DNA of 28,240 bases from a virus (taxonomy: Duplodnaviria; Heunggongvirae; Uroviricota; Caudoviricetes). The notes under the pieces are model-generated. The model was not told the origin of the DNA, made no database searches, and worked only from the letters and a program-made list of their open reading frames with translations. The position numbers were made by a program, and so were the translations under genes. This document shows, piece after piece, positions 4,612 through 27,416 of this stretch (its first letter is position 1; every line of letters begins with the position of its first letter). The stretch lies in IMG/VR virus record IMGVR_UViG_2695420398_000010; one strand, 5' to 3'.

Positions 4612-4820
4612 ACCAGAATGATATCGAAGCCATGATTCAGCGTTATACGGAAGCTGAAATGGCGGTGCTGGACGGAAAATCCGTCACCTTTAATGGTCAG
4701 CAGATGACCATGGAAAACTTATCTGAGATCCGGCAGGGACGGCAGGAGTGGGAGCGCCGCCTTGCGGCTCTGATTACACGACGACGGGGGCATCCCGGGT
4801 ACCGGCTGGCGAGGTTCTGA
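4608..4820 (+). CDS. W: Head-tail joining protein, gpW-like
   Basis: About 70 aa following the terminase with a C-terminal RRRG.PG motif as in lambda gpW; start placed at ATG 4608 for better RBS spacing (track start 4602). Confidence 0.6.
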   Translation: MNQNDIEAMIQRYTEAEMAVLDGKSVTFNGQQMTMENLSEIRQGRQEWERRLAALITRRRGHPGYRLARF

Positions 4821-6328
4821 TGGCAATTCTTGATGATGTGATTGGCGTTTTTTCACCAGGATGGAAAGCGGCAAGGCTGCGTTCCCGTGCGGTGATCCAG
4901 GCTTATGAGGCCGTAAAAACGACGCGGACACACAAAGCCCGGCGGGAAAACCGAACTGCCGACCAGTTAAGCCAGTACGGGGCCGTGTCGTTACGTGAGC
5001 AGGCCCGTTACCTTGATAACAACCACGATCTGGTTATTGGTGTATTTGACAAGCTGGAAGAACGGGTGGTGGGGAAAAACGGGATTATTGTCGAGCCACA
5101 TCCGGTATTACGCAATGGGGCCATTGCCCGTGACCTGGCTGCGGAGATTCGCACCCGATGGAGTGAATGGTCTGTCAGCCCGGAAGTCACCGGGCAGTTT
5201 ACCCGTCCGATGCTGGAACGTCTGATGCTGCGTACCTGGCTGCGCGATGGTGAGGTGTTTGCCCAGATGGTTTCCGGGCGCATAAACAGCCTGACGCCTT
5301 CTGCCGGTGTTCATTTCTGGCTGGAGGCGCTCGAGCCGGACTTTATTCCCATGACCAGTGATGAGAGCAACAGGCTGAATCAGGGCGTGTTTGTTGATGA
5401 CTGGGGGCGTCCCGAAAAATATCTGGTGTATAAAAGCCGTCCCGTATCCGGACGGCAGATGGAAACCAAAGAAGTGGATGCAGAGCGAATGCTGCATCTT
5501 AAATTTGTTCGCCGTCTGCACCAGATGCGCGGGACGTCTTTGTTGTCCGGTGTGCTGATCCGCCTCAGTGCCCTGAAAGATTATGAAGATTATGAGCTGA
5601 CTGCAGCAAGGATCGCCGCTGCTCTGGGGATGTACATCCGCAAAGGCGACGGGCAGAGCTATGAACCGGATGGTAATGGCAGCAAGGAGAATGAACGCGA
5701 TCTTACCATTCAGCCAGGCATTATTTACGACGATCTGAAACCCGGCGAAGAAATCGGAATGGTGAAGTCGGATCGTCCCAATCCTAACCTTGAAACTTTT
5801 CGTAATGGTCAGTTGCGTGCCGTGGCGGCGGGCAGTCGTCTGAGTTTTTCCAGTACGGCACGCAACTATAACGGCACTTACAGCGCCCAGCGTCAGGAAC
5901 TGGTTGAGTCTACTGATGGCTACCTGATCCTGCAGGACTGGTTTATTGGTGCCGTCACCCGCCCGATGTATCGTGCCTGGCTGAAACAGGCTGTGGCATC
6001 CGGTGTTATCAGGCTACCCCGCGATCTTGACCGTTCTTCACTGTATACCGCGGTGTATTCCGGACCGGTGATGCCGTGGATTGACCCTGTTAAGGAGGCT
6101 GAGGCCTGGAAAATCCAGATTCGTGGTGGAGCGGCGACAGAATCAGACTGGGTACGTGCTGGTGGTCGTAATCCGGATGATGTCAAACGTCGGCGCAAGG
6201 CCGAAATTGATGAAAACCGCAAGCTGGATCTGGTATTTGATACCGATCCGGCCAGTGATAAAGGAGGCAGCAGTGCCGCAACGAAACGACATGAGCCGCA
6301 GCACACCGACGACCAGTCCGAAGAATAA
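4820..6328 (+). CDS. Portal protein (lambda gpB family)
   Basis: 503 aa from ATG 4820 (ATGA overlap with the W stop); the track ORF extends upstream to 4748 but that overlaps W. Position and size fit a portal. Confidence 0.85.
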   Translation: MAILDDVIGVFSPGWKAARLRSRAVIQAYEAVKTTRTHKARRENRTADQLSQYGAVSLREQARYLDNNHDLVIGVFDKLEERVVGKNGIIVEPHPVLRNGAIARDLAAEIRTRWSEWSVSPEVTGQFTRPMLERLMLRTWLRDGEVFAQMVSGRINSLTPSAGVHFWLEALEPDFIPMTSDESNRLNQGVFVDDWGRPEKYLVYKSRPVSGRQMETKEVDAERMLHLKFVRRLHQMRGTSLLSGVLIRLSALKDYEDYELTAARIAAALGMYIRKGDGQSYEPDGNGSKENERDLTIQPGIIYDDLKPGEEIGMVKSDRPNPNLETFRNGQLRAVAAGSRLSFSSTARNYNGTYSAQRQELVESTDGYLILQDWFIGAVTRPMYRAWLKQAVASGVIRLPRDLDRSSLYTAVYSGPVMPWIDPVKEAEAWKIQIRGGAATESDWVRAGGRNPDDVKRRRKAEIDENRKLDLVFDTDPASDKGGSSAATKRHEPQHTDDQSEE

Positions 6329-8300
6329 TTCCTGGTTCAGGATGCAGGCTGGTCACCAGAGTGACGCGGATATTTATATTTATGACGAGATTGGTTTCTG
6401 GGGTGTTACAGCGAAGCAGTTTATCAGTGATCTGAATGCACTGGGCGATATCACCCACATTAATCTCCATATTAATTCACCGGGTGGCGATGTCTTTGAA
6501 GGCATCGCCATTTTTAATGCGCTTAAAACACATGGTGCGTCCATTACCGTTTATGTCGACGGTGTGGCGGCGTCAATGGCGTCGGTCATTGCGATGGTGG
6601 GAAACCCGGTCATTATGCCGGAAAACACCTTCATGATGATTCATAAACCATTTGGCTTTACGGGCGGTGATGCGGAGGACATGCGCACCTATGCCGACCT
6701 GCTCGATAAGGTTGAGGCGGTTCTGTTACCCGCTTATGCACAGAAAACCGGGAAAACCACCGATGAAATTGCTGCCATGCTGGCGGATGAGACCTGGATG
6801 TCCGGTGCCGAATGTCTGGCACATGGATTTGCTGATCAGGTAACGCCAGCCGTTAAGGCAATGGCATGTATTCAGTCAAAACGTACAGAGGAATTTAAAA
6901 AGATGCCGGAATCCATTCGAAACATGATTACTCCGCCACGCAACAGTGCTCCACGCGTACAGGATGATGAACCTGCAGCCTCCCGGACGCCAGTGCAGGC
7001 AGCAGCACCCGTGGTGGATGAAAACAGTATCCGTGCGCAGGTACTGGCAGAGCAAAAAGCGCGTGTAAACGGTATTAATGATCTGTTTGCCATGTTTGGC
7101 GGGCGTTATCAGACACTGCAGGCTCAGTGTCTTGCCGATCCTGAATGTTCGCTGGAGCAGGCCCGCGAAAAGCTGTTGAACGAGATGGGGCGCGAGTCCA
7201 CGCCATCCAATAAAAATACCCCGGCTCATATTTATGCCGGTAACGGTAATTTTGTGGGGGACGGGATCCGCCAGGCGCTGATGGCGCGTGCCGGATTTGA
7301 AAAAACCGAACGTGATAATGTCTACAACGGGATGACCCTGCGTGAATATGCCCGTATGTCACTGACTGAACGGGGTATTGGGGTTTCCAGTTATAACCCG
7401 ATGCAGATGGTCGGTGCGGCGTTCACACACAGTACGTCTGACTTCGGTAATATTCTGCTGGATGTTGCGAATAAAGCCATTTTGCAGGGCTGGGAAGATG
7501 CCCCTGAAACCTATGAACAGTGGACGCGGAAAGGTCAGTTGTCTGATTTTAAAATTGCCCATCGTGTGGGTATGGGGGGCTTCAGTGCTCTGCGTCAGGT
7601 GCGTGAAGGGGCGGAATATAAATACGTCACCACCGGAGATAAACAGGCCACTATTGCACTGGCGACCTATGGCGAGCTGTTCAGTATCACCCGTCAGGCC
7701 ATTATCAATGATGATCTGAATATGCTGACCGATGTCCCGATGAAACTGGGCCGTGCGGCGAAATCCACTATTGCCGATCTGGTTTATGCCATTCTGACGT
7801 CTAACCCGAAAATCTCCACAGATAATGTAAGTCTGTTCGATAAAGCGAAACATGCAAACGTACTGGAGAGCGCGGCAATGGACGTGGCATCGCTGGATAA
7901 AGCCCGCCAGTTGATGCGCGTTCAGAAAGAGGGGGAGCGTCATCTGAATATTCGTCCTGCGTTCGTACTGGTACCGACGGCGATGGAGTCTGTTGCTAAC
8001 CAGGTCATTCGCTCCTCAAGTGTCAAGGGGGCTGACATTAACGCCGGTATTATTAATCCGGTGAAAGATTTTGCGACCGTTATTGCAGAGCCTCGTCTTG
8101 ATGATAACAGCCAGACCACCTTCTACCTGGCTGCGTCCAAAGGCTCCGATACGATTGAAGTGGCTTATCTCAACGGTGTGGATACGCCATATATTGATCA
8201 GATGGAGGGCTTCAGTGTGGATGGCGTGACAACGAAAGTGCGTATTGACGCTGGTGTCGCGCCAGTTGATCACCGCGGTCTGGTGAAATGTACGGCGTAA
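6273..8300 (+). CDS. Fused prohead protease (ClpP-like) / scaffold-like linker / major capsid protein
   Basis: Single uninterrupted frame; probable GTG start 6273 after AAGGAGG (alternative ATG 6291). N-terminal ClpP/S14-type protease region (GVAASMAS..., MIHKP), a charged linker, and a C-terminal major-capsid-like domain. Confidence 0.8.
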   Translation: MPQRNDMSRSTPTTSPKNNSWFRMQAGHQSDADIYIYDEIGFWGVTAKQFISDLNALGDITHINLHINSPGGDVFEGIAIFNALKTHGASITVYVDGVAASMASVIAMVGNPVIMPENTFMMIHKPFGFTGGDAEDMRTYADLLDKVEAVLLPAYAQKTGKTTDEIAAMLADETWMSGAECLAHGFADQVTPAVKAMACIQSKRTEEFKKMPESIRNMITPPRNSAPRVQDDEPAASRTPVQAAAPVVDENSIRAQVLAEQKARVNGINDLFAMFGGRYQTLQAQCLADPECSLEQAREKLLNEMGRESTPSNKNTPAHIYAGNGNFVGDGIRQALMARAGFEKTERDNVYNGMTLREYARMSLTERGIGVSSYNPMQMVGAAFTHSTSDFGNILLDVANKAILQGWEDAPETYEQWTRKGQLSDFKIAHRVGMGGFSALRQVREGAEYKYVTTGDKQATIALATYGELFSITRQAIINDDLNMLTDVPMKLGRAAKSTIADLVYAILTSNPKISTDNVSLFDKAKHANVLESAAMDVASLDKARQLMRVQKEGERHLNIRPAFVLVPTAMESVANQVIRSSSVKGADINAGIINPVKDFATVIAEPRLDDNSQTTFYLAASKGSDTIEVAYLNGVDTPYIDQMEGFSVDGVTTKVRIDAGVAPVDHRGLVKCTA

Positions 8301-8386: not shown

Positions 8387-8710
8387 ATGGCAAAGAATTT
8401 TGTAGAAGAAGGAAAAACGGTGGCGATTGTTGCCAGTGCAGCCATCAGCAGCGGAGATCTGGTGCAGGTGGGTGATATTTTTGCGGTGGCGCTGACCGAT
8501 ATTCCACAGGGTGAAACAGGCGACGGCATGACCGAAGGTGTGTTTATGCTGCCTAAGCTGAAAACGGATGACATGAAAACGGGTAAGAAGGTTTATCTGA
8601 AGTCCGGAAAAGTTCAGCTGACTAACAGCGGCTCTGATCCGCTGGTCGGGGTTGTCTGGGCAGATGCCGGAACCAGTGCAGAAGAAGTGCCGGTAAAACT
8701 CAATGTCTGA
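8387..8710 (+). CDS. Small head-associated protein (DUF2190-like; possible decoration/cement protein)
   Basis: 107 aa from ATG 8387 with a GGAG RBS; Gly/Val-rich beta-type sequence directly after the capsid gene. Confidence 0.45.
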   Translation: MAKNFVEEGKTVAIVASAAISSGDLVQVGDIFAVALTDIPQGETGDGMTEGVFMLPKLKTDDMKTGKKVYLKSGKVQLTNSGSDPLVGVVWADAGTSAEEVPVKLNV

Positions 8711-10720: not shown

Positions 10721-10740
10721 CAGGACGATACTCATCATTT

Positions 10741-10765
10741 GCCCCGGTTATTCGGGGCTTTTTTG
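10741..10765 (+). terminator. Rho-independent terminator-like hairpin between V and G
   Basis: GCCCCG-GTTATT-CGGGGC followed by TTTTTT. Confidence 0.5.
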
Positions 10766-10777
10766 CAGGTGGAGAAC

Positions 10778-11167
10778 ATGATGTTTCTGAAACAGGACAC
10801 GTTTAATTATGAAAAACAGTCCGTGGTGCTCAGTGAGCTGTCCGGGCTGCAGAGAATTGAATATCTGACGTTTGTTCAGCAGCGAACGGCAAAGTTTGAT
10901 GCCGGGGAGGGAGAACTGCCGGAGGCTGAACGACAGATTGCTTTTCTGCGGATGGGGATGGATATCAATGCCTGGCTGGTTTCCCGCTCACTGTGGAATG
11001 CGGAACAGTCTCAGGATGTTGAGACGCTTTACGCATCCGTTATTACAACATGGTCGTATGATGCCCTGGGTGCGGGGGCGGAGATGGTTCTGTCGCTGAG
11101 CGGTATGGGGGCCATTGATAATGCCGGGGATTTGGAGCATGAGGTGCTGACGCCGGAAAAGTCCTGA
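10778..11167 (+). CDS. G: Tail assembly chaperone G
   Basis: Start at ATG 10778 (MMFLK...); resembles lambda gpG (MFLK, VTLSELS.LQRIE.L); ends at TGA 11165-11167. Confidence 0.85.
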   Translation: MMFLKQDTFNYEKQSVVLSELSGLQRIEYLTFVQQRTAKFDAGEGELPEAERQIAFLRMGMDINAWLVSRSLWNAEQSQDVETLYASVITTWSYDALGAGAEMVLSLSGMGAIDNAGDLEHEVLTPEKS

Positions 11168-11505
11168 CGCGGGAAATGCAGTTTGTCATGCGGCTTGCCC
11201 GGGAGTTCCGGCGGGCAGACTGGCGGCGGATGCTGTCGGAAATGTCGGCCACTGAGCTTGGTGAGTGGGGCGATTATTTCCGGATGCAGAGCTTCAGTGA
11301 TGTGTGGATGGATGCGCAGTTTGCCTCGCTGAAGGCATTGATCGTGAGAATGGTGTCCGGCAGCAGTGATGCTGCGGTGGCTGATTTCAGCCTTTTACCG
11401 GAAGAGAACGGGATACCGGAGCGAACGGACGAAGAACTGATGCATCTTGGGGAAGGTATTTCCGGAGGTGTGCGTTATGGACCAGATAGCCAACCTGGTC
11501 ATTGA
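11143..11505 (+). CDS. T: T-frame segment of the G-T tail assembly chaperone, reached by -1 frameshift from G
   Basis: The -1 frame is open from 11143 and overlaps the last 8 codons of G; an A-rich slip site CCGGAAAAG sits at about 11153-11161; the ORF continues to 11505 and overlaps the H start. Confidence 0.7.
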   Translation, partial: GADAGKVLTREMQFVMRLAREFRRADWRRMLSEMSATELGEWGDYFRMQSFSDVWMDAQFASLKALIVRMVSGSSDAAVADFSLLPEENGIPERTDEELMHLGEGISGGVRYGPDSQPGH

Positions 11506-14880: not shown

Positions 14881-15579
14881 ATGCAGGATATTCCACAGGA
14901 AACACATCATGAGACGACACACCTCACTCAGTCAGCCCAGGTGGTGCTCTGGGAAATCGATCTGACAGTGGTTGGTGGAGAACGTTATTTTTTCTGTAAT
15001 GAGCAGAACGAAAAAGGTGAGCCGGTCACCTGGCAGGGGCGACAGTATCAGGCGTATCCCATTCAGGGGACGGGATTTGAACTGAACGGCAAGGGCAGTG
15101 CTGCCCGTCCGACACTGACGGTTTCTAACCTGCACGGCATGGTCACCGGGATGGCGGAAGACCTGCAGAGTCTGGTCGGAGGAACGGTGGTCCGGCGTAA
15201 GGTTTACGCCCGTTTTCTGGATGCGGTGAACTTCGTCAACGGAAACAGTGACGCCGATCCGGAGCAGGAGGTGATCAGCCGCTGGCGCATCGAGCAGTGC
15301 AGCGAACTGAGCGCGGTGAGTGCCTCTTTTGTACTGTCCACGCCGACGGAAACGGACGGTGCCGTTTTTCCGGGACGTATCATGCTGGCCAACACCTGCA
15401 CCTGGACCTATCGCGGTGATGAGTGCGGTTATCACGGTCCGGCGGTCGCGGATGAATATGATCAGCCGACGTCCGATATCACGAAGGATAAATGCAGCAA
15501 ATGCCTGAGCGGCTGTAAGTTTCGCAATAACGTCGGCAACTTTGGCGGCTTCCTTTCCATTAACAAACTTTCGCAGTGA
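14881..15579 (+). CDS. L: Minor tail protein L
   Basis: 232 aa, same length as lambda gpL; Cys-rich C-terminus. Confidence 0.9.
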   Translation: MQDIPQETHHETTHLTQSAQVVLWEIDLTVVGGERYFFCNEQNEKGEPVTWQGRQYQAYPIQGTGFELNGKGSAARPTLTVSNLHGMVTGMAEDLQSLVGGTVVRRKVYARFLDAVNFVNGNSDADPEQEVISRWRIEQCSELSAVSASFVLSTPTETDGAVFPGRIMLANTCTWTYRGDECGYHGPAVADEYDQPTSDITKDKCSKCLSGCKFRNNVGNFGGFLSINKLSQ

Positions 15580-15584
15580 ATCCC

Positions 15585-16328
15585 ATGACAGAGACAGAAT
15601 CAGCGATTCTGGCGCACGCCCGGCGATGTGCGCCAGCGGAGTCGTGCGGCTTCGTGGTGAGAACGCCGGAAGGGGAAAGATATTTTCCCTGCGTGAATAT
15701 CTCCGGTGAGCCGGAGGATTATTTCCGGATGGCTCCGGAGGACTGGCTGCAGGCAGAAATGCAGGGAGAGATTGTGGCGCTGGTCCACAGCCACCCCGGT
15801 GGTCTGCCCTGGCTGAGTGAGGCCGACCGGCGGCTGCAGGTGCAGAGTGATTTGCCGTGGTGGCTGGTCTGCCGGGGGGCGATTCATAAATTCCGCTGTG
15901 TGCCGCATCTCACCGGGCGGCGCTTTGAGCACGGGGTGACGGACTGTTACACGCTGTTCCGGGACGCTTACCATCTGGCGGGAATTGAGATGCCGGATTT
16001 TCATCGCGGGGATGACTGGTGGCGTCACGGCCAGAATCTCTATCTTGACAATATGGAGGCAACGGGTTTTTACCGTGTCCCACTGACAGAGGCGCAGCCT
16101 GGCGACGTGCTGCTGTGCTGTTTTGGTTCATCGGTGCCGAATCATGCCGCCATTTACTGTGGCGACGGCGAGCTGCTGCACCATATTCCTGAACAACTGA
16201 GTAAACGAGAGAGGTACACCGACAAATGGCAGCGACGCACACACTCCCTCTGGCGTCACCGGGCATGGCACGCATCTGCCTTTACGGGGATTTGCAACGA
16301 TTTGGTCGCCGTATCGACCTTCGTGTGA
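15585..16328 (+). CDS. K: Tail assembly protein K (JAB/MPN plus NlpC/P60-like)
   Basis: HSHP metal-binding JAMM-like motif and a downstream Cys/His segment; start set at ATG 15585 (track gives GTG 15576 overlapping the L stop). Confidence 0.85.
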   Translation: MTETESAILAHARRCAPAESCGFVVRTPEGERYFPCVNISGEPEDYFRMAPEDWLQAEMQGEIVALVHSHPGGLPWLSEADRRLQVQSDLPWWLVCRGAIHKFRCVPHLTGRRFEHGVTDCYTLFRDAYHLAGIEMPDFHRGDDWWRHGQNLYLDNMEATGFYRVPLTEAQPGDVLLCCFGSSVPNHAAIYCGDGELLHHIPEQLSKRERYTDKWQRRTHSLWRHRAWHASAFTGICNDLVAVSTFV

Positions 16329-16933: not shown

Positions 16934-19900
16934 ATGGGTAAAGGCAGCAGTAAGGGGCATACCCCGCGCGAAGCAAAGGACAACCTGAAGTCCACGCAGT
17001 TGCTGAGTGTGATCGATGCCATCAGCGAAGGGCCGGTTGAAGGTCCGGTGGATGGATTAAAAAGCGTGCTGCTGAACAGTACACCGGTGCTGGACAGTGA
17101 GGGGAATACTAACATCTCCGGTGTCACGGTGGTGTTCCGGGCAGGTGAGCAGGAACAGACACCGCCGGAGGGATTTGAATCATCAGGTTCCGAGACGGTA
17201 CTGGGTACGGAAGTGAAATACGACACGCCGATCACCCGGACCATCACGTCGGCAAACATTGACCGTCTGCGCTTTACCTTCGGTGTGCAGGCACTGGTGG
17301 AAACCACCTCAAAGGGGGACAGGAATCCGTCGGAAGTTCGCCTGCTGGTTCAGATACAACGTAACGGTGGCTGGGTGACGGAAAAAGACATCACCATTAA
17401 GGGCAAAACCACCTCGCAGTATCTGGCCTCGGTAGTGGTGGATAATTTGCCGCCGCGCCCGTTCAACATCCGGATGCGCAGGATGACGCCGGACAGCACC
17501 ACAGACCAGCTGCAGAACAAAACGCTCTGGTCGTCATACACCGAAATCATCGATGTGAAACAGTGCTACCCGAACACGGCACTGGTCGGCGTACAGGTGG
17601 ATTCGGAGCAGTTCGGCAGCCAGCAGGTGAGCCGTAATTATCATCTGCGCGGGCGCATTCTGCAGGTGCCGTCGAACTATAACCCGCAGACGCGGCAATA
17701 CAGCGGTATCTGGGACGGAACGTTTAAGCCAGCATACAGCAACAACATGGCCTGGTGTCTGTGGGATATGCTGACCCATCCGCGCTACGGCATGGGGAAA
17801 CGTCTTGGTGCGGCGGATGTGGACAAATGGGCGCTGTATGTCATCGGCCAGCATTGCGATCAGTCGGTGCCGGACGGTTTTGGCGGCACGGAGCCGCGCA
17901 TCACCTGTAATGCGTACCTGACCACACAGCGTAAGGCGTGGGATGTGCTCAGTGATTTCTGCTCGGCGATGCGCTGTATACCGGTATGGAACGGGCAGAC
18001 GCTGACGTTCGTGCAGGACCGACCGTCGGATAAGGCGTGGACCTATAACCGCAGTAATGTGGTGATGCCGGATGATGGCGCGCCGTTCCGCTACAGCTTC
18101 AGCGCCCTGAAGGACCGCCATAATGCCGTTGAGGTGAACTGGATTGACCCGGATAACGGCTGGGAGACGGCGACAGAGCTTGTGGAGGATACGCAGGCCA
18201 TTGCCCGTTACGGTCGTAACGTCACGAAGATGGATGCCTTTGGCTGTACCAGCCGGGGGCAGGCACACCGCGCCGGGCTGTGGCTGATTAAAACAGAACT
18301 GCTGGAAACGCAGACCGTGGACTTCAGCGTGGGTGCCGAAGGGCTTCGCCATGTACCGGGCGATGTCATTGAAATCTGCGATGATGACTATGCCGGTATC
18401 CGCACCGGCGGGCGCGTGCTGGCGGTAAACAGCCAGACCCGGACGCTGACGCTCGACCGTGAAATCACGCTGCCATCTTCCGGCACCACGCTGATAAGCC
18501 TGGTTGACGGGCAGGGGAGTCCGGTCAGCGTGGAGGTTCAGTCCGTCACCGACGGCGTGAAGGTGAAAGTGAGCCGTGTTCCTGACGGCGTTGCTGAATA
18601 CAGCGTATGGGGGCTGAAGTTGCCGACGCTGCGCCAGCGCCTGTTCCGCTGTGTGAGTATCCGTGAGAACGACGACGGCACGTATGCCATCACTGCCGTG
18701 CAGCATGTACCGGAGAAAGAAGCCATCGTGGATAACGGGGCGCACTTTGACGGTGACCAGAGCGGCACGGTGAATGGTGTCACGCCGCCAGCAGTGCAGC
18801 ATCTGACCGCCGAAGTCACCGCAGACAGCGGGGAATATCAGGTGCTGGCGCGATGGGACACGCCGAAGGTGGTGAAGGGCGTGAGCTTTATGCTTCGCCT
18901 GACCGTGGCAGCGGATGACGGCAGTGAGCGGCTGGTCAGCACGGCCAGGACGACGGAAACCACATACCGCTTCACGCAACTGGCGCTGGGGAACTACAGG
19001 CTGACGGTCCGGGCGGTAAATGCGTGGGGACAGCAGGGCGATCCGGCGTCGGTATCGTTCCGGATCGCCGCACCGGCAGCACCGTCGCGGATTGAGCTGA
19101 CGCCGGGCTATTTTCAGATAACCGCAACGCCGCATCTTGCGGTTTATGATCCGACGGTACAGTTTGAGTTCTGGTTCTCGGAAAAGCGGATTACCGATAT
19201 CAGGCAGGTTGAAACCACAGCCCGCTATCTTGGCACGGGGCTGTACTGGATAGCCGCCAGTATCAATATCAAACCGGGCCATGATTATTATTTTTACGTT
19301 CGCAGTGTGAACACCGTTGGCAAATCGGCATTCGTGGAGGCTGTTGGTCAGCCGAGTGATGACGCATCCGGCTATCTGGATTTTTTCAAAGGCGAGATAG
19401 GGAAAACCCATCTAGCTCAGGAGCTGTGGACGCAGATTGATAACGGTCAGCTTGCGCCTGACCTGGCTGAAATCAGGACGTCCATTACGGATGTCAGCAA
19501 TGAAATCACGCAGACCGTCAATAAGAAACTGGAAGACCAGAGTGCGGCAATTCAGCAGATACAGAAGGTTCAGGTTGATACAAATAATAACCTGAACAGC
19601 ATGTGGGCCGTGAAACTGCAGCAGATGCAGGACGGACGCCTTTATATTGCGGGTATCGGTGCCGGTATTGAGAATACGCCAGCAGGAATGCAGAGTCAGG
19701 TGCTGCTGGCGGCAGACAGGATTGCGATGATTAATCCTGCGAATGGCAACACAAAGCCGATGTTTGTTGGTCAGGGTGATCAGATATTCATGAACGACGT
19801 GTTCCTGAAATATCTGACGGCTCCCACCATTACCAGCGGCGGTAATCCTCCGGTATTTTCCCTGACACCGGACGGGCGGCTGACGGCGAAAAATGCCGAT

Positions 19901-25288: not shown

Positions 25289-25323
25289 GCCGCAGAAACG
25301 TTGTATGAAATAACGTTCTGCGG
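25289..25323. terminator. Bidirectional terminator hairpin between convergent tfa and the ea47-like gene
   Basis: CCGCAGAAACGTT-GTATGAAAT-AACGTTCTGCGG, a roughly 12-bp stem, between the two convergent stop codons. Confidence 0.5.
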
Positions 25324-25402
25324 TTAGTTAGTATATTGTAAAGCTGAGTATTGGTTTATTTGGCGATTATTATCTTCAGGAGAATAATGGAAGTTCTATG
25401 AC

Positions 25403-26635
25403 TCAATTGTTCATAGTGTTTACATCACCGCCAATTGCTTTTAAGACTGAACGCATGAAATATGGTTTTTCGTCATGTTTTGAGTCTGCTGTTGATATTT
25501 CTAAAGTCGGTTTTTTTTCTTCGTTTTCTCTAACTATTTTCCATGAAATACATTTTTGATTATTATTTGAATCAATTCCAATTACCTGAAGTCTTTCATC
25601 TATAATTGGCATTGTATGTATTGGTTTATTGGAGTAGATGCTTGCTTTTCTGAGCCATAGCTCTGATATCCAAATGAAGCCATAGGCATTTGTTATTTTG
25701 GCTCTGTCAGCTGCATAACGCCAAAAAATATATTTATCTGCTTGATCTTCAAATGTTGTATTGATTAAATCAATTGGATGGAATTGTTTATCATAAAAAA
25801 TTAATGTTTGAATGTGATAACCGTCCTTTAAAAAAGTCGTTTCTGCAAGCTTGGCTGTATAGTCAACTAACTCTTCTGTCGAAGTGATATTTTTAGGCTT
25901 ATCTACCAGTTTTAGACGCTCTTTAATATCTTCAGGAATTATTTTATTGTCATATTGTATCATGCTAAATGACAATTTGCTTATGGAGTAATCTTTTAAT
26001 TTTAAATAAGTTATTCTCCTGGCTTCATCAAATAAAGAGTCGAATGATGTTGGCGAAATCACATCGTCACCCATTGGATTGTTTATTTGTATGCCAAGAG
26101 AGTTACAGCAGTTATACATTCTGCCATAGATTATAGCTAAGGCATGTAATAATTCGTAATCTTTTAGCGTATTAGCGACCCATCGTCTTTCTGATTTAAT
26201 AATAGATGATTCAGTTAAATATGAAGGTAATTTCTTTTGTGCAAGTCTGACTAACTTTTTTATACCAATGTTTAACATACTTTCATTTGTAATAAACTCA
26301 ATGTCATTTTCTTCAATGTAAGATGAAATAAGAGTAGCCTTTGCCTCGCTATACATTTCTAAATCGCCTTGTTTTTCTATCGTATTGCGAGAATTTTTAG
26401 CCCAAGCCATTAATGGATCATTTTTCCATTTTTCAATAACATTATTGTTATACCAAATGTCATATCCTATAATCTGGTTTTTGTTTTTTTGAATAATAAA
26501 TGTTACTGTTCTTGCGGTTTGGAGGAATTGATTCAAATTCAAGCGGAATAATTCAGGGTCAAAATATGTATCAATGCAGCATTTGAGCAAGTGCGATAAA
26601 TCTTTAAGTCTTCTTTCCCATGGTTTTTTAGTCAT
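25403..26635 (-). CDS. ea47: Ea47-like protein of unknown function (AT-rich accessory gene)
   Basis: Long uninterrupted minus-strand ORF in visibly AT-rich DNA; starting at the third in-frame Met (MTKKPWERRL, GGAGAG RBS upstream) gives 410 aa / 1233 nt, the size of lambda ea47, and the 128-nt gap from tfa matches lambda; track ORF extends to 26662 (419 aa). No Walker A, HNH or HEPN motif seen by eye. Confidence 0.6.
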   Translation of the reverse strand: MTKKPWERRLKDLSHLLKCCIDTYFDPELFRLNLNQFLQTARTVTFIIQKNKNQIIGYDIWYNNNVIEKWKNDPLMAWAKNSRNTIEKQGDLEMYSEAKATLISSYIEENDIEFITNESMLNIGIKKLVRLAQKKLPSYLTESSIIKSERRWVANTLKDYELLHALAIIYGRMYNCCNSLGIQINNPMGDDVISPTSFDSLFDEARRITYLKLKDYSISKLSFSMIQYDNKIIPEDIKERLKLVDKPKNITSTEELVDYTAKLAETTFLKDGYHIQTLIFYDKQFHPIDLINTTFEDQADKYIFWRYAADRAKITNAYGFIWISELWLRKASIYSNKPIHTMPIIDERLQVIGIDSNNNQKCISWKIVRENEEKKPTLEISTADSKHDEKPYFMRSVLKAIGGDVNTMNN

Positions 26636-26811
26636 AAAACTCTCCATTTTGATAGGTTGCATGCTAGATGCTGATATATTTTAGAGGTGATAAAATTAAC
26701 TGCTTAACTGTCAATGTAATACAAGTTGTTTGATCTTTGCAATGATTCTTATCAGAAACCATATAGTAAATTAGTTACACAGGAAATTTTTAATATTATT
26801 ATTATCATTCA

Positions 26812-27126
26812 TTATGTATTAAAATTAGAGTTGTGGCTTGGCTCTGCTAACACGTTGCTCATAGGAGATATGGTAGAGCCGCAGACACGTCGTATGCAGG
26901 AACGTGCTGCGGCTGGCTGGTGAACTTTCGATAGTGCGAGTATTGAATGATTTCCAACTGTTATCGATTTTGCGTATTTTTTGCATGAGAGGATTTTTAC
27001 CTCCTCCCACCGATCCTCCATGGCTTTACGCCAGTGTCTCTGGTCTGCTATGTGCCAGGAGCAGCCATTGCTAAGTCCATCCTGTATTGTGCAGGTCAGC
27101 TCGTTTTTAAAGAGTCCGGCCATCAT
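26812..27126 (-). CDS. Hypothetical 104-aa ORF upstream of and co-oriented with the ea47-like gene (doubtful)
   Basis: Open frame of near-normal GC content with a weak RBS and tandem ATG start; no recognisable family; could be a decayed remnant. Confidence 0.15.
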   Translation of the reverse strand: MMAGLFKNELTCTIQDGLSNGCSWHIADQRHWRKAMEDRWEEVKILSCKKYAKSITVGNHSILALSKVHQPAAARSCIRRVCGSTISPMSNVLAEPSHNSNFNT

Positions 27127-27416
27127 CTTACTGGTACAGACACCATATACTTTGTGACGGTCAGGCTACATATGCACAACTCAACTTATTCATCTATTTT
27201 TTGCTTTAGCATGTCAGTGTTGCTTTCTCGTCGGCGGGTGAGCGGTGACCTGACCTGTCGATAAAGGAACGTAGCACGTTTTATGCAACACCCGCATGCG
27301 GCAGAAAATTATTGCCGAACGTTTACCCCTGTCAACAAGCTTTACTTTCTGAGGCGCGCCAGCCCGCGAGGAAAACAATCTGAACATCAAACAATTAATG
27401 ACACAAGAAATACGAT

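Follow-up and report, generated by a model that had tools for sequence, protein, structure and literature searches.

A ClpP-like prohead protease, a scaffold-like linker and the major capsid protein in one reading frame of a cdtI/mEp460-type lambdoid phage, with a candidate internal start at the protease/linker junction

Results

Layout of the locus

The window analysed here is a stretch of 28,240 nucleotides (nt) of viral DNA (Caudoviricetes; IMG/VR record IMGVR_UViG_2695420398_000010). Its head module holds the gene that is the subject of this study, a single frame that encodes a ClpP-like prohead protease, a scaffold-like linker and a major capsid protein (Table 1). Over its full 2028 nt this fusion gene is 98.5-99.5% identical to its counterparts in the coliphages cdtI, mEp460, mEp460_4F5, phi458, Tritos and Ayreon, with values of 99.4-99.5% for cdtI (NC_009514) and mEp460_4F5. 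The first 25 kb of the window is 96-98% identical to these coliphages over 73-86% of its length, and the records of phi458, vB_EcoS-569R4, mEp460_ev081 and PhiR55_1 cover 80-86% of it at 96.6-97.6% identity. Because of this near-identity, we assign the window to a lambdoid phage or prophage of the cdtI/mEp460 type, of which it is the late region.

The plus-strand frame is open from 6081 to a stop codon at 8298-8300, and the start codon of the fusion gene is the GTG at 6273. The Shine-Dalgarno (SD) sequence ahead of this codon is predicted to pair with the 3' end of 16S rRNA at -11.6 kcal/mol, the same motif precedes the full-length start of a homologue in an Stx2 phage, and RefSeq/PGAP chose the same start in a chromosomal copy that is 99.7% identical. 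We also considered the ATG at 6291 and rejected it; it has no SD sequence (+0.1 kcal/mol), and the PGAP start is 6273. The portal gene, whose PGAP start in a near-identical RefSeq locus maps to position 4820 of the window, overlaps the beginning of the fusion gene by 56 nt; counted from ATG 6291 the overlap would be 38 nt. An earlier reading of this DNA, made from its letters and open reading frames (ORFs) and called here the original prediction, had proposed one frame of about 676 residues that starts some 40-55 nt inside the portal gene. We indeed find one uninterrupted ORF, of 675 residues, and the overlap is real and close to the estimate.

Table 1. Features of the fusion gene and of other parts of the window. 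Positions are those of the window; residue numbers count from the GTG at 6273 (aa, amino acids).
Feature	Position	Strand	Basis
Portal gene, lambda family	4820..6328	+	Pfam Phage_portal_2, E 1.4e-81; TIGR01539 portal_lambda, 451 bits; PGAP start
SD sequence AAGGAGG for the full-length product	6261..6267	+	5 nt upstream of GTG 6273
Fusion gene: ClpP-like prohead protease / scaffold-like linker / major capsid protein, 675 aa	6273..8300	+	ORF; NF045540; PHROG 133; phage identity
ClpP-like (S14-type) serine protease domain, aa 20-200	6330..6872	+	Pfam, NF045542, solved ClpP structures; mean identity 68%
Ser101 codon, predicted catalytic nucleophile (S of the AASMA motif)	6573..6575	+	Aligned to the active-site Ser of ClpP 1y7o
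His124 codon, predicted catalytic His (H of MIHKP)	6642..6644	+	Aligns with IHQP of ClpP
Glu173 codon (E of ETW), aligned with the triad Asp of ClpP	6789..6791	+	Alignment; role inferred
Internal SD-like GAGGA, AGGA core at -14 to -11 of ATG 6903	6888..6892	+	Synonymous constraint
In-frame ATG of Met211, where protease and linker meet; candidate nested start of a 465-aa scaffold-capsid product (6903-8300)	6903..6905	+	Conservation; function inferred
Variable Pro/Ala-rich segment, aa 220-249	6930..7019	+	Mean identity 25%; no predicted secondary structure, low pLDDT
Helical linker, aa 250-310, candidate scaffolding (delta-like) domain	7020..7202	+	AlphaFold2 helices; mean identity 48%
Conserved pre-capsid segment, aa 311-374, AGNGN... 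and DN.YNGMTLRE motifs	7203..7394	+	Mean identity 65%
Major capsid protein domain, Mu-gpT / Phage_capsid_4 type, aa 375-675	7395..8297	+	Pfam and profile; mean identity 66%
Separate decoration ('cement') protein gene, functional counterpart of lambda D	8387..8710	+	Pfam Phage_cement_2, E 5.5e-21
419-aa ORF in the low-GC island	25403-26662	-	ORF list
104-aa ORF in the low-GC island	26812-27126	-	ORF list

The fusion belongs to a known and widespread family

The fused protease-scaffold-capsid arrangement is already known, curated and very common, and is of the tripartite type described for the Salmonella phage Gifsy-2. NCBIfam has a model for it, NF045540 ('ClpP-like prohead protease/major capsid protein fusion protein'), which the window protein matches with 985 bits against a cut-off of 475; residues 32-674 cover model positions 2-651 of 652. 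PHROG 133 matches the protein end to end. The gene was found in 2125 of 5426 complete E. coli genomes (~39%), about 1970 of which hold at least 80% of it, and is altogether an extremely common prophage gene of E. coli, Shigella and Salmonella. A scan of one genome per species added 80 loci at 46-99% identity from Enterobacterales, Pasteurellales, Shewanella, Psychromonas, Photobacterium, Pseudomonas and other hosts, and is the source of the homologue diversity used below; a scan of viral contigs returned almost only near-identical E. coli prophages, and our comparative tests rest on the genome contigs. The fusion is thus conserved across many Gammaproteobacteria. The frame is uninterrupted in every complete locus from another species (78/78), and Pseudomonas phage F10 carries an uninterrupted fusion at 57% identity.

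Public labels for this gene are inconsistent, ranging over 'Clp protease ClpP', 'head-tail preconnector protein Nu3', 'protease/scaffold protein', 'head maturation protease' and 'Major head protein', and RefSeq/PGAP is the only source that annotates it as a fusion protein. The 'Clp protease ClpP' labels found in many records are misnomers. The protease-type and Nu3 labels hide the major capsid gene of these phages, Stx- and cdt-converting ones included. One study reports that automated prediction failed to recover an HK97-fold capsid protein for Gifsy-2 (PMC8814770); we suspect that the capsid protein was hidden there in a gene labelled as a protease.

Domains along the fusion protein

We divided the protein into segments and computed the mean identity of each across 81 homologues (Table 1). 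The Pfam family CLP_protease matches residues 31-191 (E = 2.8e-36), the model NF045542, 'head maturation protease, ClpP-related', scores 215.7 bits against a cut-off of 120, and residues 54-196 align with solved ClpP structures (E = 4e-16). Ser101, His124 and Glu173 are invariant in 82 of 82 fused homologues, and the Glu of the ETW motif is likewise invariant in three aligned phage ClpP-like proteases that are not fused. Because the catalytic Ser and His do not vary among the 82 homologues, it is plausible that the fusion protein contains an active protease that processes the protein itself. The domain falls outside the cellular ATP-dependent ClpP family, scoring 59.6 bits on TIGR00493, for which the cut-off is 308.6, and likewise staying below the cut-offs of all other ClpP equivalogs. 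We conclude from these sequence comparisons that the protease has a ClpP fold and the ClpP catalytic residues and that it is not a cellular ClpP.

Between the protease and the capsid domain lie four segments of differing conservation. A junction motif at residues 201-219 (mean identity 55%) is followed by the Pro/Ala-rich stretch, which is probably a flexible tether. AlphaFold2 places helices at residues 250-273, 280-288 and 294-305 of the linker that comes next, and the 10-residue block means of the predicted local distance difference test (pLDDT) over residues 251-300 lie at 60-85; apart from the protease core, no other blocks scored well. In a Pfam search no family matched the linker (residues 250-310), and the modelled helices hint only weakly at a scaffolding role. 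The motifs of the pre-capsid segment are shared with a second family of fusion proteins, NF045541, and the maturation cleavage site is probably located within this segment.

The C-terminal domain is recognised by the Pfam family Phage_capsid_4 (PF25209; residues 375-672, E = 9.4e-55) and less strongly by the Mu-like gpT family PF10124 (E = 4e-8). A profile built from 38 linker-plus-capsid sequences matches solved capsids of the Mu-gpT type (9jod_A, E = 2.7e-11; 8rkx_L and 8rkc_A, E about 7e-11); a search of solved capsid structures with the single sequence gave E = 7e-4. The two ends of the protein are therefore what the original prediction had proposed from sequence, a ClpP-like protease within the N-terminal third and a capsid protein at the C-terminus.

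A conserved candidate start codon inside the fusion gene

The junction motif contains an in-frame ATG, the codon of Met211, with an SD-like sequence upstream (Table 1). This codon is ATG in 81 of 82 homologues, whose identities to the window protein span 46-99%. Five codons upstream, codon 206 is GAG in 57 homologues, AAG in 13 and CAG in nine, such that the third base is G in all 79 Glu, Lys or Gln codons, as compared with gene-wide G-ending fractions of 0.40, 0.31 and 0.59 for these three amino acids. Codon 206 ranks top among 47 comparable columns and is the sole one to reach 1.0, the next standing at 0.77. Counted over distinct sequences, position -13 relative to the ATG is G in 62 of 65; the other six third-codon positions between -19 and +5 are less constrained, five of them reaching only 0.31-0.58 and position -7 reaching 0.74.

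In all 82 homologues the 45 nt of mRNA around ATG 6903 hold less structure than the gene does on average (mean z +1.55), and their G+C content is 15 points lower; six control Met columns showed nothing comparable in the structure test, with values near 0. We rejected likeness to an SD sequence as evidence in its own right, as a control, Met137, also has a strong SD-like stretch upstream, there because the conserved residues G-G-D-A-E-D encode it. The case for a nested start draws on three other lines, namely the test of synonymous sites, the test of mRNA structure and the second fusion family.

In that second family, NF045541, the equivalent Met is an ATG preceded at 7-10 nt by AGGA or GGAG in 22 of 25 full-length members, and the residues encoded by the SD region differ (KE, RE, TE, QE and GV). 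We also inspected the Met211 column in nine proteases that are not fused to a capsid domain. On a simple one-column reading, five have Val or Ala and three have Met; Mycobacterium Camster and Xanthomonas Xop411 align ambiguously at this column, and the protease of Vibrio R20L has Met-Pro there without an SD sequence.

Taken together with the precedent of lambda Nu3 (below), the conserved ATG, the fixed base in codon 206, the unstructured mRNA and the pattern in NF045541 suggest that a conserved internal ribosome-binding site and the ATG of Met211 also yield a protease-less scaffold-capsid protein of 465 residues. We lean slightly towards this possibility. If so, the fusion gene would be a nested gene pair, in which the protease is an N-terminal extension carried by only a fraction of the coat subunits, an arrangement that we judge a little likelier to hold than to fail.

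Relation to Gifsy-2

The closest described system is the phage Gifsy-2, whose protein STM1034.3n aligns with the window fusion over its full length, at 70% identity and 83% positives over 668 residues, and scores 949.6 bits on NF045540. STM1034.3n is the product of what Effantin et al. 2010 (Virology 402:355, pmid 20427067) called the 'tripartite capsid gene' (STM1034.3n / STM1033 region). Both proteins start with a ClpP-like protease and end with a capsid protein, with a central domain of some 200 residues in between, and their genes have the same neighbours: a lambda-type terminase, a small W-like gene, a portal gene overlapping the fusion start, a DUF2190 decoration gene, and Z, U and V. 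Gifsy-2 also has an internal SD sequence and ATG, with AGGAG 9 nt before the ATG of 'MPQSIK'. The two differ in host (Salmonella for Gifsy-2, E. coli for the window), in the N-terminus, which is 21 residues shorter in the window protein, and in the Pro/Ala-rich linker, which is divergent. The Gifsy-2 record itself names the cdtI protein as a relative.

The 2010 abstract of Effantin et al. reportedly names three parts: a protease resembling ClpP, some 200 central residues that may serve as a scaffold, and the capsid protein at the C-terminus. Later papers are in line with the comparison: one, citing Effantin et al. 2010, states that the prohead protease and coat genes of Gifsy-2 are fused (PMC12315714), another gives the Gifsy-2 capsid as T=7 (PMC8814770), and a third places a trimeric decoration protein at its 3-fold axes (PMC8538268). 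Within the full-text literature covered, which did not extend to the primary paper, the fusion, the processing of the Gifsy-2 capsid and an internal start were met only as citations of Effantin 2010.

Relation to lambda

The original prediction had assigned the head module to a different lineage from the lambda-like tail module and had listed lambda C, Nu3, D and E as the functions merged in the fusion. By BLASTP, the tail proteins of the window are 49-56% (Z, U, V, M) and 78-94% (L, K, I, J) identical to those of lambda, whereas the fusion protein has no match at E < 1e-3 among lambda C, Nu3, D and E. A Pfam search of the fusion found neither Peptidase_S49 nor Phage_cap_E, and SppA gave a weak, sub-threshold echo of 22 bits. 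The contrast between head and tail thus holds, with the nuance that the large terminase subunit (TerL, 25% identity to lambda) and the portal protein (23%) still belong to lambda-type families (GpA and portal_lambda). By these sequence comparisons the head modules of the window and of lambda are very distantly related rather than unrelated. As for the list of functions, those of C, Nu3 and E are combined in the fusion, but the counterpart of D is a gene of its own downstream (Table 1), to which the 'DUF2190 family protein' annotated by PGAP in a near-identical locus maps.

The two head modules are alike in that the gene occupies the same place in the late operon, after a lambda-family portal gene, and begins with a protease of the same clan (ClpP/SppA fold) followed by an in-frame scaffold. 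They differ in that lambda has its capsid protein E in a separate gene, with decoration gene D before E, while the window has its capsid domain within the fusion and its decoration gene after it. In lambda, translation of Nu3 begins inside C, at codon 239 and just past the protease domain, and C/Nu3 is thereby a precedent for the proposed nested start at codon 211 of the window fusion.

A second fusion family and unfused relatives

Members of NF045541 ('prohead protease/major capsid protein fusion protein'), such as that of Ralstonia phage YO122_2 (1829-3922; 744 bits on the model), are also encoded by a single ORF. The window protein scores 399.9 bits on this model, below the cut-off of 525, and its residues 220-672 match. 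The linker-plus-capsid part of NF045541 is homologous to the window protein from the internal Met onward, whereas its N-terminal protease is unrelated to ClpP and found no match in a Pfam search. Because the boundary of homology coincides with the internal Met, the alignment suggests that one protease domain has been exchanged for another ahead of a scaffold-capsid unit that is itself conserved.

More distantly related phages encode the ClpP-like protease on its own, in a gene between those for the portal and the capsid protein. Unfused head modules of this type occur in Paenibacillus HB10c2, Staphylococcus fPfSau02 and Vibrio K316, whose proteases are 38-43% identical to that of the window. 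Since these relatives keep the order portal, ClpP-like protease, capsid protein, the fusion corresponds, on the evidence of gene order, to a joining of genes that were already neighbours. HK97 (gp4/gp5) and the unfused ClpP-type modules have the same order, a portal, a protease, and a scaffold domain attached to the capsid protein; in both, protease and capsid protein are kept apart by a stop codon, and the capsid protein comes from another Pfam family. The HK97 protease is, in addition, of a different type from the ClpP-like protease of the window. In HK97 gp5 the scaffold (delta) domain is attached to the capsid protein (PMC10275583), and the predicted product from Met211 would be its direct analogue.

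Discussion

The window gene is the E. coli (cdtI/mEp460-type) orthologue of the Gifsy-2 'tripartite capsid gene', and we propose that it works by the mechanism outlined here, a reading to which as a whole we give a probability of about 0.88. Translation from GTG 6273, within the end of the portal gene, would yield the 675-residue polyprotein, and polyprotein subunits, possibly mixed with protease-less scaffold-capsid subunits, would assemble on the portal. The C-terminal domain, of HK97 fold and Mu-gpT type, would form a T=7 procapsid shell with the ClpP-like protease and the helical, delta-like linker facing inward. The linker would thus serve as a covalently attached scaffold, and the fusion would bring the protease into the shell. 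Once the shell has assembled, the N-terminal 300-370 residues would be cut off by the Ser101/His124 protease, leaving a capsid domain of about 300 residues. The shell would then expand upon DNA packaging and be stabilised by the separate cement protein (8387-8710). For processing, the scaffolding role, the T number and decoration, this proposal draws by analogy on the literature on Gifsy-2, HK97 and lambda, and the cleavage position and the stoichiometry are likewise proposals. Beside the fusion, which was known, the internal start at Met211 is possibly the one new point.

Several observations weigh against parts of this proposal. The AlphaFold2 model of the full protein, computed with 23 fairly close homologues aligned, is of low quality, with a mean pLDDT of 39.8; nothing but parts of the protease core and the three helices at residues 250-305 exceeds about 65, and the capsid part lies below 50. 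Because of this, the HK97 fold is backed by profile homology only and the scaffolding role remains weakly supported. For the nested start, the internal SD sequence is modest, at -6.0 kcal/mol (7th percentile of in-frame positions). Pro212 and the Phe or Tyr at 208 are conserved in unfused proteases too, and the motif is in part a protein-level feature. The homologues are phylogenetically related, so the counts overstate their independence.

These points lend weight to a different account of the junction, in which the full-length polyprotein is the only product, each of some 415 shell subunits carries protease and linker, and Met211-Pro212 is no start codon and instead a feature of the protein, such as a self-cleavage site or part of a C-terminal extension of the protease. 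We consider this a serious contender, somewhat short of an even chance. The SD sequence of the full-length start is far stronger (-11.6 vs -6.0 kcal/mol), an acidic residue at 207 is kept in unfused ClpP-like prohead proteases along with Pro212 and F/Y208, and none of the public records compared annotates a nested gene. A rough estimate with an assumed inner radius of ~205 Å indicates that 415 copies of ~38 kDa would fill about half of the prohead interior, which is crowded and yet possible. What a protein motif cannot explain, however, is that the third base of codon 206 stays G while the residue varies between E, K and Q, and it leaves unaccounted for the A/U-rich, unstructured mRNA in all homologues. 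Moreover, NF045541 has the same combination of SD sequence and ATG with different residues and an unrelated protease. The unfused proteases argue in the same direction, as five of the nine have Val or Ala at the Met column on a one-column reading (two proteases align there ambiguously) and the Met-Pro of R20L comes without an SD sequence.

Two further alternatives concern the fusion itself. The ClpP-like domain could be catalytically dead and act as an additional scaffold or cargo, with a host protease or another phage protease making the maturation cleavage. In favour of this, the third triad position is Glu, where cellular ClpP has Asp, and the scores of the domain stay far under the cut-offs set for true ClpP equivalogs (as for TIGR00493 above). 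But Ser101 and His124 are invariant, the ETW Glu is invariant also in phage ClpP-like head proteases that stand alone, the curated model for ClpP-related head maturation proteases recognises the domain above its cut-off, and a Pfam search of the neighbouring ORFs of the head module revealed no other protease gene, all of which makes a dead domain very improbable. That the single frame is a sequencing or assembly artefact, or a decayed prophage pseudogene that merges two or three genes, is a notion that no observation favoured and to which we give almost no credence. The same frame occurs in independent phage genomes (99% identity), in the roughly 1970 E. coli genomes, in Gifsy-2 and in F10, it is intact at other-species loci down to 46% identity, and purifying selection is clear on the catalytic residues and capsid motifs; the sequencing error that the original prediction had named as a possible source of the long frame is excluded.

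If the proposed start at Met211 is used, it would extend the principle of lambda C/Nu3 to the coat protein and resemble a bacterial-virus version of the dosage of retroviral Gag and Gag-Pol. It would explain how the ratio of protease to coat protein is set and how some 415 proteases per prohead are avoided. Because the signal is conserved in two fusion families with unrelated proteases, the internal start would amount to a general rule for these common prophage head genes. Synonymous mutants of the internal SD sequence would then offer a genetic handle on the dosing of a covalently attached scaffold and protease.

Other features of the window

Within the lambda-like tail module, the longest ORF of the K homologue (15576-16328) has an N-terminal extension of 51 residues relative to lambda K. 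BLAST aligns its residues 52-250 with residues 1-199 of lambda K at 94% identity, and translation probably begins further downstream than the GTG that the ORF finder chose. The homologues of the tail chaperones G and T (10739-11505) are adjacent as in lambda; the slippery heptamer of lambda, GGGAAAG, is absent at the G/T junction of the window, so a G-T frameshift product, if one is made, would use another slip site. Inside the gene of the central tail fibre J, and wholly contained in it, lies an antisense ORF of 625 residues (17534-19411, minus strand), probably a by-product of the codon composition of a high-GC stretch.

Just downstream of the tail-fibre assembly gene, a low-GC island extends from 25300 to 27200, with a GC content of 33-37% as compared with ~53% elsewhere. 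Pfam and PADLOC searches gave no match for its 419-residue and 104-residue ORFs (Table 1). The site just past the tail-fibre assembly gene is a classic place for prophage 'moron' or cargo genes. At the other end of the window, the records of mEp460, Ayreon and mEp460_ev081 begin at about position 1990, a short way before the small-terminase gene of the DUF1441 type (2015-2509), and a genome end (cos) may lie near this point.

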